Positions 60,463-64,000 of a DNA stretch of 64,000 bases are shown here, in pieces. The stretch's first letter is position 1, and every line of letters begins with the position of its first letter. Source of the stretch: a virus (Duplodnaviria > Caudoviricetes); the IMG/VR virus record IMGVR_UViG_3300020036_004254; one strand, given 5' to 3'. Position numbers and translations under genes: made by a program. The notes under the pieces are model-generated. The model was not told the DNA's origin. It searched no databases and worked only from the letters and a program-made list of their open reading frames with translations.

Positions 60463-60833
60463 GTGCAAAACAGGAAATGATTGATGCGGTAAACAAATTT
60501 CGAAATCATTTGATGGCAGAATCAACCTCGTTCCGTTCAATGACACATGATAATGTACTGCGGAGCTTGCATTCTGCGAGACGGGTTGGTAATACTTCTA
60601 CGCTCGCTGGTGTTCTCAAGATAAATCCAAATGCTACACTCTTGGTTGGCAATCGAAGAATGGTTGATGACGTAACAAAAACTCACGGCATTTGTACAAC
60701 TAGGGTACACAGCGCAGAATCATTTTCTCAAAACCCCGGATTTCTCTATTGGGTTAATGGTCCCGTGCTGTTTGATACAACCGCAATAGAAACAATTTTA
60801 CATAACATCAGGAATGAGGTTCAAAATGGCTAA
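60459..60833 (+). CDS. Hypothetical protein with a degenerate P-loop-like motif
   Basis: AAGGAG RBS; ARRVGNTS. Confidence 0.6.
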   Translation: MSAKQEMIDAVNKFRNHLMAESTSFRSMTHDNVLRSLHSARRVGNTSTLAGVLKINPNATLLVGNRRMVDDVTKTHGICTTRVHSAESFSQNPGFLYWVNGPVLFDTTAIETILHNIRNEVQNG

Positions 60834-61434
60834 GTTACAGGTAAATGAAATTCTTGACAGAGTTTCCGCATTAGATGACATGGATTTAAAGATTAAAGCC
60901 ATGGATGACATGTGCAAGAAGGAACCGTATTTGTGGTCATTGCTCAAGATGGCTGTCAACCCGGACTATAAGATTGACCGTCTTCCACCCGGATTGCCAG
61001 AACGGTTTAAGCCAGAGCCAGATTTGCCGTCTAGTATTTCTGATACCAACATTCGAACCGAATTCCGTCGGATTCAGAATTACGTAAAGGGTGGTGCTTT
61101 AAAGGTTATTGACGAAAAGAAGTTGTTGGATAGCTGGACTGCCCTGTTACAGGGTTTGCACTATCAGGAAGCCCTGATTTTGACCATGGTAAAGGACCAA
61201 AATCTTTTGGAAAAATATCCTGATTTTTGGGTCATTTGTCCCGCTCTAGGGATTGAAACGTGTATAAATACAGATGAGGAAACTGGCGACCCAGCCTCGG
61301 CTTTGAAGTCCGTTGACCCAGACACGAAGTCCGCTGAAACCGTCACCGGAAGTCCTGTCCCACCAAGCGTGGATACAGTTACGGAACCGCCCAAAGCGAG
61401 TCCAGCCAAAACCAAGAAAGGAAAAGAGAAATGA
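60826..61434 (+). CDS. Conserved T4-like hypothetical protein
   Basis: VNEILD, LPPG, LLQGLH..EA.IL..VKD..L..KYP. Confidence 0.75.
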   Translation: MAKLQVNEILDRVSALDDMDLKIKAMDDMCKKEPYLWSLLKMAVNPDYKIDRLPPGLPERFKPEPDLPSSISDTNIRTEFRRIQNYVKGGALKVIDEKKLLDSWTALLQGLHYQEALILTMVKDQNLLEKYPDFWVICPALGIETCINTDEETGDPASALKSVDPDTKSAETVTGSPVPPSVDTVTEPPKASPAKTKKGKEK

Positions 61435-61600
61435 TTAGAACACATTTTATACTCTGGACAGAACGGAAATCTGAAGTGACCAAGTCGTCACTTGAGAGCA
61501 AGTCTGGTACACAAGGTTCAAGTTTCTAGTCAGGTTTCCGGTGTTTCTTCGGCCCCTTTCTGGTTACCAAACTGGAAAGGGGCTTCAGATTTTAGGGGGC

Positions 61601-61629
61601 TTGACAAACGCAGGAAGGGGGTGTAAGAT
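61601..61629 (+). promoter_or_regulatory. Sigma70-type promoter TTGACA-N17-TAAGAT
   Basis: Heads the tRNA region. Confidence 0.8.
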
Positions 61630-61816: not shown

Positions 61817-61891
61817 GGGAGGTTCGCCTAGCGGCTATGGCACTTGTCCTACACACAAGTATAACCGTGGGTTCGAGTCCCACACTTCCCA
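61817..61891 (+). tRNA. tRNA-Val(UAC)
   Basis: Acceptor GGGAGGT/ACTTCCC; anticodon arm CTTGT-ccTACac-ACAAG; GTTCGAGTC T-loop. Confidence 0.9.
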
Positions 61892-61894
61892 TTT

Positions 61895-62036
61895 GGTTCG
61901 ATACACCAGCCTCGCCAGAGGCGTGAATGCAGATGACGTACCCGTGTCCTGTCGCTAACGGCGAAATCTAGTACTGCATTCTGTAAGGGAGCGTTATCGA
62001 CGTAAGGAACCACACGCTGACATGGGTGGTTCGCCA
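61895..62036 (+). ncRNA. Unknown ~140-nt pseudoknotted RNA
   Basis: Several stems and a 9-bp long-range pairing, found by hand. Confidence 0.5.
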
Positions 62037-62040
62037 ATTT

Positions 62041-62123
62041 GGAGAGTACCGCGAAACGGTTTGCAAGTGGACTTGAAATCCATGGACACCGCAAGGTGTG
62101 GGGTTCGATTCCTCTACTCTCCT
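62041..62123 (+). tRNA. tRNA-Ser(UGA)
   Basis: Acceptor GGAGAGT/ACTCTCC; GTGGA-ctTGAaa-TCCAT; long variable arm; atypical D arm. Confidence 0.85.
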
Positions 62124-62130
62124 CTGAAGG

Positions 62131-62199
62131 TTTTCTGTGGTGAAATGGAGAACACCCTCTGCTAGCGGGGGATTGTGGGTTCGAGTCCCACCAGAAAGA
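62131..62199 (+). ncRNA. tRNA-like RNA with a 4-nt (CUAG) anticodon loop
   Basis: Acceptor TTTTCTG/CAGAAAG; intact D and T arms; shrunken anticodon loop. Confidence 0.7.
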
Positions 62200-62210
62200 T
62201 GAAGCACCCC

Positions 62211-62239
62211 TTGACAAACGCAATGTAAGGGGTTATGCT
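62211..62239 (+). promoter_or_regulatory. Sigma70-type promoter TTGACA-N17-TATGCT
   Basis: Promoter family member; followed by boxA-like GTTTATTGACAACTGAA. Confidence 0.8.
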
Positions 62240-62294
62240 ATAGAAGTGTTTATTGACAACTGAAGATAGTAGTGTACGTTTAGGTACACCCATT

Positions 62295-62370
62295 ACCTAC
62301 CATGGTGCCGTGTTGACATTGTTGGTATCACATCAACACCAGCGCAAGCTGTGTGATATCGATTGGGGGT
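62295..62370 (+). ncRNA. Unknown three-stem pseudoknot RNA
   Basis: 7-bp and 12-bp interlocked stems plus a GNRA hairpin. Confidence 0.55.
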
Positions 62371-62395
62371 TCTCCATTCATCCTAAATGGAATAT

Positions 62396-62478
62396 ACCGC
62401 CATGGCAAAATGGCAAAGCGCCGCACTTAGGATGCGGAGTCCGAAAGGGCATTGTGGGTTCGAGTCCCACTGGCGGTA
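62396..62478 (+). tRNA. tRNA-Leu(UAG)
   Basis: Acceptor ACCGCCA/TGGCGGT; CCGCA-ctTAGga-TGCGG; long variable arm. Confidence 0.9.
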
Positions 62479-62480
62479 CT

Positions 62481-62576
62481 GTGACTGTGATGGAACATGA
62501 TAGACATAGGGAAAGGACAATCCCGGAAGAGAAATTCCAAACGCTCTTCGTATCGGTTTGAATCCGGTCGGTCACG
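62481..62576 (+). ncRNA. Type II tRNA-like RNA with a non-canonical 8-nt anticodon loop
   Basis: Acceptor GTGACTG/CGGTCAC; T arm ATCGG-TTTGAAT-CCGGT; GGGA-aaggacaa-TCCC; oversized variable arm. Confidence 0.65.
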
Positions 62577-62601
62577 TTGAAACAACCTTGTAGTACAAAT
62601 T

Positions 62602-62723
62602 ACCGTTCAGCATGAGCGAGGGGTGATACTGGCCAGTAAGCCCACGGTCCATGCGTTTAACCCGAACTACGGGCGATATCCTGTAGTGGTTAGAAGATGG
62701 GGCGTTCGATTCCCCCAACGGTC
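62602..62723 (+). ncRNA. tRNA mimic with acceptor and T arm plus two long extra arms
   Basis: ACCGTT/AACGGT; GGGG(C)G-TTCGATT-CCCCC; two long internal hairpins. Confidence 0.55.
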
Positions 62724-62734
62724 GCTATATCGTC

Positions 62735-62850
62735 CGTCCCTCATGGTTGGGACGTTAAACAAAGGCCAGAATCGTTGTGTGTCCCTTGAGAAGGAACACT
62801 CTGGTAAGTGGGGATAGTGCCATAATGCAATCTGACTGGTTGCAAACCCC
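62735..62850 (+). ncRNA. Unknown multi-stem RNA
   Basis: CGTCCC/GGGACG, GCCAGA/TCTGGT, TGCAATC/GGTTGCA, GGGG/CCCC. Confidence 0.45.
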
Positions 62851-62855
62851 TTCAC

Positions 62856-62930
62856 GCGCTCATCGAATTTAACGGTTAGTTCAACGGACTTTTAATCCGT
62901 ATGGTGGGGGTTCGAATCCCTCTGGGCGCA
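62856..62930 (+). tRNA. tRNA-Lys(UUU)
   Basis: Acceptor GCGCTCA/TGGGCGC; ACGGA-ctTTTaa-TCCGT; GTTCGAATC. Confidence 0.88.
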
Positions 62931-63006
62931 TTGTACAGTCGAACGTGTCAGCACACACCTAGCTAAGTACGAGGGGCCGTTCCTTGTAACTGTACATTCT
63001 CAGGAC

Positions 63007-63035
63007 TTGACAAACACCACATCCGGTGGTACTAT
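63007..63035 (+). promoter_or_regulatory. Sigma70-type promoter TTGACA-N17-TACTAT
   Basis: Promoter family member. Confidence 0.8.
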
Positions 63036-63057
63036 ACGGAGGTCGGAAGACCATAAA

Positions 63058-63176
63058 TTCCCTCTCGTTCTCAATTTCAAGTCTGACGAACGGTTGATTA
63101 ATGACTTGGTGCGAACTCCACAGCAGAAGCGGTTGCCTTAAGACAGTAAGCGCAACATTGAGTGGGGAAACTGTCA
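63058..63176 (+). ncRNA. Unknown multibranch RNA with a 3' pseudoknot
   Basis: CTCAAT/ATTGAG, CAAGTC/GACTTG, GTTGC..GCAAC; loop GACAGT pairs with 3' ACTGTC. Confidence 0.5.
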
Positions 63177-63179
63177 CAT

Positions 63180-63254
63180 GGCGCATTGGTGTAATAGGCT
63201 AACACGCAGGATTTTCACTCCTGAGACTTACGAGTTCGAGCCTCGTATGCGCTA
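63180..63254 (+). tRNA. tRNA-Glu(UUC)
   Basis: Acceptor GGCGCAT/ATGCGCT; CAGGA-ttTTCac-TCCTG; GTTCGAGC. Confidence 0.85.
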
Positions 63255-63293
63255 TTAGGACAAAAAGACAACAAAAGTAGAGAGTTCGACTCG

Positions 63294-63301
63294 TATAAAT
63301 A
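63294..63301 (+). promoter_or_regulatory. T4-type late promoter TATAAATA
   Basis: Upstream of the endonuclease ORF. Confidence 0.75.
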
Positions 63302-63325
63302 CTAGCAACCTCATCAGGAGCTAGT

Positions 63326-64000
63326 ATGGTTGTAAAGTGTAAATGTGGAGCGGACTTTGAGAATGTCGGTAAATATGGGATTCGTAAGTTTTGTTCGCGG
63401 AAGTGTGCCAACAGCCGTGGACCGAGAACAGAGGAAACCAAGAGAAAGCAATCAATGTCTCTTGTTGGTCGTAATGTTGGTGGAAAACTCGCCAACCCAC
63501 TTCTCAAAGAGAAAAGAAAATGTTTAGGGTGTGATAGCAAATTTGAGTGTTACAAAAAAGCATCCAAACGTTGGTGTTCTCTTAAGTGCAGTAAGAAACT
63601 CTCTGGTGGGTACAGGGAGGGTTCTGGGAACGGGAAGTCTGGGTGGTACAAAGGAATCTTCTGCAATTCTAGCTATGAATTAGCATGGGTGGTTTATCGC
63701 TTAGACCACGGATTTGAAGTGAAAAGATTCTCGGGGTACTTGACTAATGGTGTGTTGAAGTATTATCCTGATTTCATCGTGGGTGACAAACACATTGTTG
63801 AGATAAAGGGGTACCATCGTAAAGAGGTTGATGAGAAGACCGAGCTTGCTAAATCTTTGGGATATGTGATAGATGTCCTATACAAGACAGATTTGCGGGA
63901 GTGTTTTGATTGGATACAAACAAAGTATCACACGAAAAATGTCATCAGCCTTTATGACAACCGAAAACCGAAATTTAGTTATAGATGTCATTTCTGTGGT
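63326..64000 (+). mobile_element. PD-(D/E)xK homing-type endonuclease with zinc fingers (truncated by window end; absent from ORF track)
   Basis: AGGAG RBS; CKCG..FCSRKC, CLGC..WCSLKC, SSYELAW, YYPDF..IVEIKG. Confidence 0.8.

Follow-up and report, generated by a model that had tools for sequence, protein, structure and literature searches.

A conserved structured RNA among decoding tRNAs and probable tRNA relics in the tRNA gene island of an apparently T4-like freshwater phage

The DNA analysed here, which we call the window, is a stretch of 64,000 nucleotides (nt) from IMG/VR virus record IMGVR_UViG_3300020036_004254 (Duplodnaviria; Caudoviricetes), and our subject is its transfer RNA (tRNA) region at positions 61817–63254. 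A first-pass annotation, made from the letters alone, had described five canonical tRNAs, three tRNA-shaped RNAs without a usable anticodon and about five non-tRNA folds, and had read the whole as an RNA toolkit punctuated by tRNAs. We think it probable that this is where the tRNA gene island of an uncultured T4-like freshwater phage begins, the region being the first 1.4 kilobases (kb) of about 10 kb, and that the region represents a T4-style tRNA cluster that is eroding and turning over, with five decoding tRNAs, three former tRNAs and one conserved structured RNA. The genes and elements that carry this interpretation are listed below, with stem lengths in base pairs (bp).

61817–61891, plus strand: tRNA-Val(UAC), from default ARAGORN and Rfam; loop CCUACAC, with C at position 33
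61892–62039, plus strand: element A, a conserved structured RNA in the Val-Ser spacer, 148 nt, from five-phage alignment A4
62040–62124, plus strand: tRNA-Ser(UGA), type II, found at relaxed thresholds only; atypical, with an 8-bp acceptor stem and a 4-bp T stem
62131–62199, plus strand: "tRNA-Pyl(CUA)" by default ARAGORN (Rfam 36.5 bits), probably a former tRNA-Leu(CAA)
62396–62479, plus strand: tRNA-Leu(UAG), from default ARAGORN and Rfam
62480–62577, plus strand: element C, a relic of type II tRNA shape, probably once a tRNA-Leu(UAA), from ARAGORN at -ps85 and alignment A8
62602–62723, plus strand: element D, probably a former tRNA-Ser(GCU), from its minimum-free-energy fold and a relaxed ARAGORN call at 62631–62725
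62856–62930, plus strand: tRNA-Lys(UUU), from default ARAGORN and Rfam
63179–63255, plus strand: tRNA-Glu(UUC), from default ARAGORN and Rfam

A tRNA was counted as canonical if it reached the 29-bit gathering threshold of Rfam RF00005 or was called by ARAGORN at default settings. ARAGORN made five such calls, all on the plus strand (Val, "Pyl-cta", Leu, Lys and Glu), and Rfam recovered the same five at its gathering score. The serine tRNA emerged from ARAGORN at -ps85 and -ps90 and scores 41.6 bits on the Rfam tRNA-Sec model (62040–62123), with the loop CUUGAAA; it is 90% identical to the copy in a close relative, L006. The five canonical tRNAs of the first-pass annotation are Val, Ser, Leu, Lys and Glu, the serine gene at relaxed settings, and the ARAGORN and Rfam scans, run as the annotation had suggested, bear out its inventory of tRNAs and tRNA-shaped elements. 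Packing is as tight as it had described, most elements lying 0–24 nt apart by reading, and tRNAs and embedded RNAs do run head to tail in promoter-driven units. No tRNA gene of the region encodes its CCA end, as read from the sequence, so maturation would have to use RNase P, 3' trimming and CCA addition.

Relatives were found through the DUF6433 gene upstream of the cluster (60814–61434). The close ones, with 64–77% amino-acid identity in the DUF6433 protein, are L035/L001, L005, L007, L003 and L006, and in all of them tRNA-Val lies just 3' of this gene. In distant freshwater relatives (28–35% identity) the DUF6433 gene is followed by dense arrays of 26–29 canonical tRNAs, in which the order Val, Leu-CAA, Ser-UGA, Leu-UAG, Leu-UAA, Lys-UUU recurs. 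L036, a JGI metagenome contig 99.9% identical to the window, shows that the island runs at least 7 kb past the window's end, with about 13 more tRNAs; the nearest virus record, G001, does not contain the region. Downstream of tRNA-Leu, L035 is the one relative that allows comparison, and its true tRNAs and those of the window are too diverged for BLAST. The anticodon loop of tRNA-Val (61848–61854) reads CCUACAC, with C32 and C33, in the window, L035, L005 and L007, and has the usual form UUUACAC in L003, L006 and the distant relatives. Loss of the conserved U33 is rare in a decoding tRNA, and this one fits the nuclease-evading loop variants proposed for phage tRNAs (PMC10264068).

None of the three tRNA-shaped elements (62131–62199, 62480–62577 and 62602–62723) has a 7-nt anticodon loop with U33 on a 5-bp stem, which upholds the earlier claim that their anticodons are unusable. 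The first has the loop UGCUAGC with G33, a 3-bp D stem, a 3-nt variable region and A73. Element C is 98 nt long, with a perfect 8-bp acceptor stem, a 7-bp variable arm and the T loop UUUGAAU; the loop in its anticodon position is purine-rich and without U33. Element D combines an acceptor-like helix (ACCGUU/AACGGU), two long arms and a canonical-looking T arm, GGGGCGUUCGAUUCCCC, and has no credible anticodon arm. Neither C nor D gave an Rfam tRNA match at E-values up to 10.

Each of these elements was aligned globally to all tRNAs of the distant arrays, with shuffles as the null. The best match of 62131–62199 is Leu-CAA (score 69.5 against a null of 39.4 ± 3.2), and the same is true of its homologue in L035. 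The six best global matches of element C are all Leu-UAA (56 against 44 ± 3.3), and element D is matched best by Ser-GCU (62.5 against 47.5 ± 2.7). These best matches are exactly the three missing isoacceptors: canonical genes for Leu-CAA, Leu-UAA and Ser-GCU are lacking in the island of the window phage, as far as L036 reaches. As to position, the Leu-CAA relic adjoins Ser-UGA and element C directly follows Leu-UAG, where the distant arrays have Leu-CAA and Leu-UAA; element D does not occupy the Ser-GCU position of those arrays. Judged from these alignments, the three elements are best explained as what is left of three type II tRNAs (Leu-CAA, Leu-UAA and Ser-GCU) that an ancestral dense array contained, presumably with no function of their own.

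The nature of the damage can be followed most closely in the Leu-CAA relic. A multiple alignment shows that 62131–62199 has lost two parts of Leu-CAA by deletion, the anticodon loop and the anticodon stem's 5' strand; what looks like a CUA anticodon arm corresponds in the alignment to the 3' strand of that stem together with the long variable arm. Once the anticodon hairpin was lost, the remaining 3' strand and the variable arm would have refolded into what ARAGORN reads as a CUA anticodon arm. The G33, the 3-nt "variable region" and the length of 69 nt are accounted for by this deletion of the anticodon arm and its substitution by the variable arm. The L035 copy has kept its variable arm, and an insertion of roughly 50 nt with a perfect palindromic hairpin replaces the anticodon loop. 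The relic is lacking in L005, L006 and L007; tRNA-Ser runs directly into the promoter in the first two, and in L007 the distance from tRNA-Ser to tRNA-Leu is 45 nt. In element C the D arm, anticodon stem and T arm of Leu-UAA are still recognisable and G18/G19, U33, the anticodon and C56 are lost, while the second long arm of element D aligns with the variable arm of Ser-GCU. L035 lacks counterparts of C and D; its degenerate tRNA copies are different ones, among them a Glu-like gene, with C33, beside the real tRNA-Glu. Relic content therefore differs between the window and L035, the sole pair that can be compared over the whole region.

Element A, which fills the spacer between tRNA-Val and tRNA-Ser, is a conserved, selected structured RNA and a new motif. 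It starts right after the discriminator base of tRNA-Val, lies 0–3 nt from the two tRNAs and measures 148–179 nt across phages. From alignment A4 (window, L035, L005, L003 and L007) RNAalifold derives 47 pairs, 14 of which show compensatory changes. By explicit count 95.7% of cells are paired and 14 pairs are doubly changed, against 0–2 in slid controls, and none of 500 shuffles reached the observed values. The z-score for folding of the single sequence is −1.05. The fold comprises a 5-bp terminal helix, a 6-bp long-range helix, a variable hairpin and a long arm with an inner hairpin, and a 7-bp 3' hairpin follows directly after the terminal helix. Its invariant single-stranded stretches are UACACCAGCCU and CACACG..G.CAUGGGUG, and GGCGAAAU is nearly so, with one change (in L005). 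The junction sequence GCGU and the loop of the 3' hairpin, ACGC, can be matched in four pairs, all of them paired and one with a compensatory change; a loop-to-junction pseudoknot is thus a possible addition to the modelled fold. A 9-bp pairing of ACCCGUGUC with GACAUGGGU was dropped, as by reading of the alignment it overlaps a covarying hairpin in columns 73–100 and relatives keep at most about 5–6 of its nine pairs.

An Rfam scan to E-values of up to 10, which gave only tRNA-clan and chance matches in the region, returned no match for element A. Its covariance model, R1, found no further copy in the window, the distant arrays or T4, pattern scans of IMG/VR and a genome collection yielded the known relative or chance matches only (12–15 bits by R1 over the pattern alone), and the invariant loops have no antisense targets in the window. 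The first-pass annotation had proposed a check for covariation in relatives and had called the array the best candidate in the window for an undescribed system. Element A does covary, with compensatory changes in 14 of 47 pairs, and it is conserved, structured and without an Rfam family; it is the one spacer for which conservation and structure could be demonstrated.

The surroundings of element A vary among relatives. A module AACGAGGCGUYGAU...ACGCCUACAA is common to L006:1895-2050 and L001:7429-7500; in L006 it follows tRNA-Val, in place of element A, and in L035 it follows tRNA-Leu, where its copy folds with a z-score of −2.98. RNA modules seem to move between array positions. A conserved open reading frame (ORF) of 120 amino acids (aa) lies between tRNA-Val and tRNA-Ser in L003 (L003:10969-11175), directly after element A, and in L006 (L006:2064-2426), after the replacement RNA module; the window lacks it.

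The promoters and the remaining spacers of the region are as follows.

61601–61629, plus strand: promoter P1, TTGACA-17-TAAGAT, by motif scan
62211–62239, plus strand: promoter P2, TTGACA-17-TATGCT, by motif scan; its block is conserved in L005 (91%), L006 and L035
62246–62395, plus strand: leader/spacer B, z-score −0.45; about the first 35 nt conserved, the other ~115 nt lineage-specific
62728–62855, plus strand: spacer E, z-score −1.08; no conserved-RNA support
62931–63005, plus strand: spacer F, z-score −0.61; no conserved-RNA support
63007–63035, plus strand: promoter P3, TTGACA-17-TACTAT, with TG, by motif scan
63042–63178, plus strand: leader G, z-score −0.20; no conserved-RNA support

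The motif scan thus agrees with the earlier statement that three promoters feed the cluster. All three are of sigma-70 type, with the form CTTGACAAAC-N-TAnnnT; across the window the CTTGACAAAC motif has seven exact copies among 19 matches, against 7.4 expected. A second TTGACA at 62254–62259, about 40 nt 3' of P2, is kept in L005, L006 and L035 and may mark a tandem promoter before tRNA-Leu.

The folds of segments B, E, F and G are no more stable than those of shuffled sequence (z-scores of −0.2 to −1.1), and comparison with the window itself and with all the relatives' loci obtained, L035, L005, L006 and L007 among them, gave no homologue of any. Where B lies in the window, L005 holds an unrelated insert and L035, L006 and L007 hold almost nothing. 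Alignment scoring detected no tRNA ancestry in A, B, F or G. Encoded proteins were worth a check because the long spacers of distant relatives hold small conserved ORFs, and no spacer of the window region contains a plausible ORF. Of the roughly five non-tRNA folds claimed at first, comparison supports the Val-Ser spacer; the other four are unconserved, with shuffle-like stability. The first-pass annotation itself had named rapidly degraded, unconserved spacers as evidence against its idea, and four unconserved folds of five come close to that. We regard B, E, F and G as probably ordinary leaders and trailers around promoters. Their want of support is no proof that they lack function, because element A itself has a z-score of only −1.05 and true tRNAs escape BLAST.

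Among the spacers of the distant arrays, most of those above 140 nt code for small conserved proteins (L015, L021, L026–L028, L030 and others). Among them are a protein of 123–128 aa between Ser-UGA and Leu-UAG, a lipoprotein-like peptide of 55–62 aa between Gln and Ala, membrane-like peptides of 45–55 aa, and, between Thr and Arg, an ORF with its own ribosome-binding site.

Wider features bear on the identity of the phage and on the borders of the cluster.

10537, 18095, 21739, 51678, 58902, 61262 and 63293, plus strand: GTATAAATA sites, by motif scan
61552–61593, plus strand: terminator-like hairpin GCCCCUUUC...GAAAGGGGC with a U-rich tail, read from the sequence; conserved in L003, L005, L006, L007 and L035
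61670–61810, plus strand: 46-codon ORF between P1 and tRNA-Val, without a match in a family search
63293–63301, plus strand: the last GTATAAATA late-promoter motif, ahead of an endonuclease-like ORF at 63326–64000+

The late-promoter motif GTATAAATA occurs seven times in the window, always on the plus strand, against 0.28 copies expected, an enrichment that suggests T4-type late promoters. Genes for RNase H, ligase, a gp21-type prohead protease, Cpn10, endonuclease V and SegE-like nucleases neighbour the region in the window and its relatives. Taken together, these gene neighbours and the GTATAAATA motif lead us to a T4-like phage with T4-type late promoters. It is a novel one: the window ligase is only about 31% identical to that of any GenBank phage.

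Upstream of the cluster, the block from the DUF6433 gene to P1 (61412–61630) is kept in all close relatives and by reading contains a strong hairpin that has a U-rich tail and an ORF of roughly 32 codons that overlaps the upstream stop codon. The hairpin (61552–61593) was not flagged by the consensus scan; it presumably closes the upstream unit just before P1. The 46-codon ORF that precedes tRNA-Val in the window has, by reading, no equivalent between promoter and tRNA-Val in L035 or L005.

Beyond tRNA-Glu, the endonuclease-like ORF encodes 259 aa with two Cys-rich repeats (window 63293–64000; L036:3690-4618). Its match to a PHROG endonuclease is weak, and it falls in no Pfam family. Past the end of the window, a tRNA-like gene with the 6-nt loop AUUGCA on a perfect 5-bp G-C stem comes 78 nt after this ORF in L036; L035 has a 6-nt-loop counterpart at the same array position, with an unrelated acceptor sequence in which 6/7 positions pair.

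Several observations weigh against our interpretation of the tRNA-shaped elements and spacers. For C and D the evidence of ancestry comes from global alignments (z about 3.6 for C and 5.5 for D); under strict local scoring it is not significant for either. The helices of the relics are kept better than neutral decay predicts, and loops have fared worse than stems. Element C retains its perfect 8-bp acceptor stem and 7-bp variable arm though the conserved loop bases are gone, and between the window and L035 the acceptor of the Leu-CAA relic has changed in a compensatory way. Such well-kept stems leave room for some selection on shape. For the spacers, with a single relative downstream of tRNA-Leu and tRNAs themselves invisible to BLAST, the lack of a homologue for B and E–G is weak evidence.

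The same well-kept stems, with the identity bases of the loops lost, and the compensatory changes in the acceptor of the Leu-CAA relic are what one might cite for another view, in which the three elements are non-decoding tRNA mimics kept by selection, either as decoys or sponges for tRNA-binding host factors (nucleases acting on the body or variable loop, for instance) or as substrates of a phage enzyme. Type II tRNAs are the probable source of all three, which retain a long variable-type arm; beyond the window L036 and L035 both carry a 6-nt-loop tRNA-like element on a G+C stem, whose acceptors are unrelated yet mostly paired; and the clade-specific C33 of tRNA-Val fits the idea of nuclease-evading loops (PMC10264068). 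We nevertheless find this view somewhat unlikely, since the lesions in the window and L035 are different and independent, three close relatives have no Leu-CAA relic, L035 has neither C nor D, and an RNA without an anticodon loop would make a poor decoy for an anticodon nuclease. The toolkit-or-decoy role first suggested for the mimics finds no support in our results and gives way, in our judgement, to tRNA derivatives with damaged anticodon arms and a content that differs between the window and L035. Quite unlikely, as we see it, is that the clade deliberately keeps type II tRNA bodies together with element A as an RNA counter-defence or regulatory set, in which the bodies could soak up host nucleases or sensors and element A could be a new protein-binding or catalytic RNA freed by tRNA processing. 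That every inter-tRNA segment (A, B, E, F and G) is a functional structured RNA freed by tRNA punctuation we consider very improbable: packing is tight, promoters are several and, with element A, at least one spacer is demonstrably a selected RNA, but the other four fold like shuffled sequence, lack homologues in L035, L005, L006, L007 and the rest of the window, and, in the case of B, are replaced in relatives by nothing or by an unrelated insert.

Leu-CAA is the classical source of leucine-inserting amber suppressors, and the descent of 62131–62199 from it, the ARAGORN call of tRNA-Pyl(CUA), the 36.5 bits in Rfam and A73 could all be taken to mean that this element is a working amber-suppressor tRNA (CUA) for stop-codon recoding or regulated read-through. 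We give this almost no credence. Position 33 is G rather than U, the D stem has 3 bp and the variable region 3 nt, the supposed anticodon arm is homologous to the old variable arm, and the L035 copy has no anticodon loop. TAG, moreover, is an ordinary stop here, ending 12/60 chosen long ORFs, and 86% of the window lies within ORFs of the standard code. How the former tRNAs arose is a separate matter, for which homing-endonuclease traffic offers an account that rivals our interpretation in this step only and is otherwise compatible with it: repeated cutting and repair would have left deleted, patched and duplicated copies. An endonuclease-like ORF does stand behind a late promoter directly after tRNA-Glu, GIY-YIG/SegE and other nuclease genes lie nearby in relatives, and the old anticodon loop of the L035 copy holds a perfect palindromic hairpin; SegB-type homing endonucleases co-localise significantly with phage tRNA genes and drive rearrangements (PMC13096335). 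Within 61817–63254, however, no nuclease ORF abuts any of the three relics, and ORF 63326 has its weak PHROG match and no Pfam family, so we hold this origin to be unlikely.

Returning to the interpretation that we favour, an eroding and turning-over T4-style cluster, we propose a model where the three host-type (sigma-70) promoters would drive polycistronic precursors. RNase P would cut these at each acceptor-like helix, and 3' trimming and CCA addition would mature the tRNAs, as in T4. The relics would have lost their anticodon loops by deletion, insertion or substitution while keeping acceptor and T arms; they are probably still excised by the tRNA-processing enzymes and would serve at most as punctuation. 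The terminal helix and 3' hairpin of element A may stack as a tRNA-like minihelix usable by RNase P or by 3' trimming enzymes. If this minihelix forms, processing would free element A from between tRNA-Val and tRNA-Ser as a small, stable RNA, like the T4 RNAs C and D, and it may accumulate.

RNAs C and D of T4, also called species 1 and 2, are stable and expressed late, with a role that is unknown (PMC3014915; PMC9697503). In the T4 cluster rnaD begins 1 nt after tRNA-Arg and rnaC 6 nt after rnaD, and the homing endonuclease segB lies inside. The present locus likewise places small non-tRNA RNAs within a few bases of tRNA genes, in a promoter-driven cluster with a putative free-standing nuclease gene. 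T4 rnaC (139 nt) combines in its fold a canonical T arm, two long arms and a terminal closure; a T arm with two long arms recurs in element D, a likeness of layout only. The comparison with the two T4 RNAs drawn in the first-pass annotation is therefore apt. The T4 cluster, however, consists of eight tRNAs and two RNAs, whereas here there are about 20 tRNAs and several degenerate copies; and stable accumulation has been shown for the T4 RNAs and is a prediction for element A. Model R1 found nothing significant at T4 rnaC or rnaD, its best match in the T4 locus lying elsewhere (E-value 0.5), and Rfam has no family for either RNA.

Other known systems resemble parts of the locus. The relics are like the tRNA pseudogenes of large phage arrays in that their anticodon arms are disabled and the array is intact in relatives, and unlike the usual tRNA pseudogene in that their stems are unusually well kept. 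The Leu-CAA relic, for its part, is common to two phages about 64% identical in a neighbouring protein, with different lesions in each; this and the well-kept stems leave room for residual selection. Theta ribozymes are minimal ribozymes of the hepatitis delta virus (HDV) type beside phage tRNAs (PMC10879173), and element A too is a structured RNA immediately beside a phage tRNA gene. It is three times larger than theta ribozymes, however, with a nested multi-branch fold closed by its own ends and at most one loop-junction pseudoknot in place of a minimal double pseudoknot, and it matched no Rfam ribozyme at E-values up to 10, although the theta family may not be in Rfam 15. Phage tRNAs with anticodon-loop variants have been proposed to evade anticodon nucleases and replace cleaved host tRNAs (PMC10264068). 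The cluster is consistent with this in being rich in U34 tRNAs (Val, Ser, Leu, Lys and Glu) and in the clade-specific C32/C33 of its tRNA-Val, but the tRNAs of that model decode, and the three tRNA-shaped elements here cannot.

Phage tRNA clusters are again of interest as anti-defence loci, and the T4 RNAs C and D have gone without a function for fifty years. The locus described here shows one probable source of anticodon-less "tRNA mimics", namely the type II tRNAs of an ancestral array. The "tRNA-Pyl(CUA)" call, best read as a variable arm that has replaced a deleted anticodon arm, is a warning for the annotation of suppressor tRNAs in phages. Should the relics prove to function, they would form a new class of RNA decoys; present evidence favours erosion. 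What the array does offer is one clean new RNA motif, element A, with strong covariation and invariant loops.

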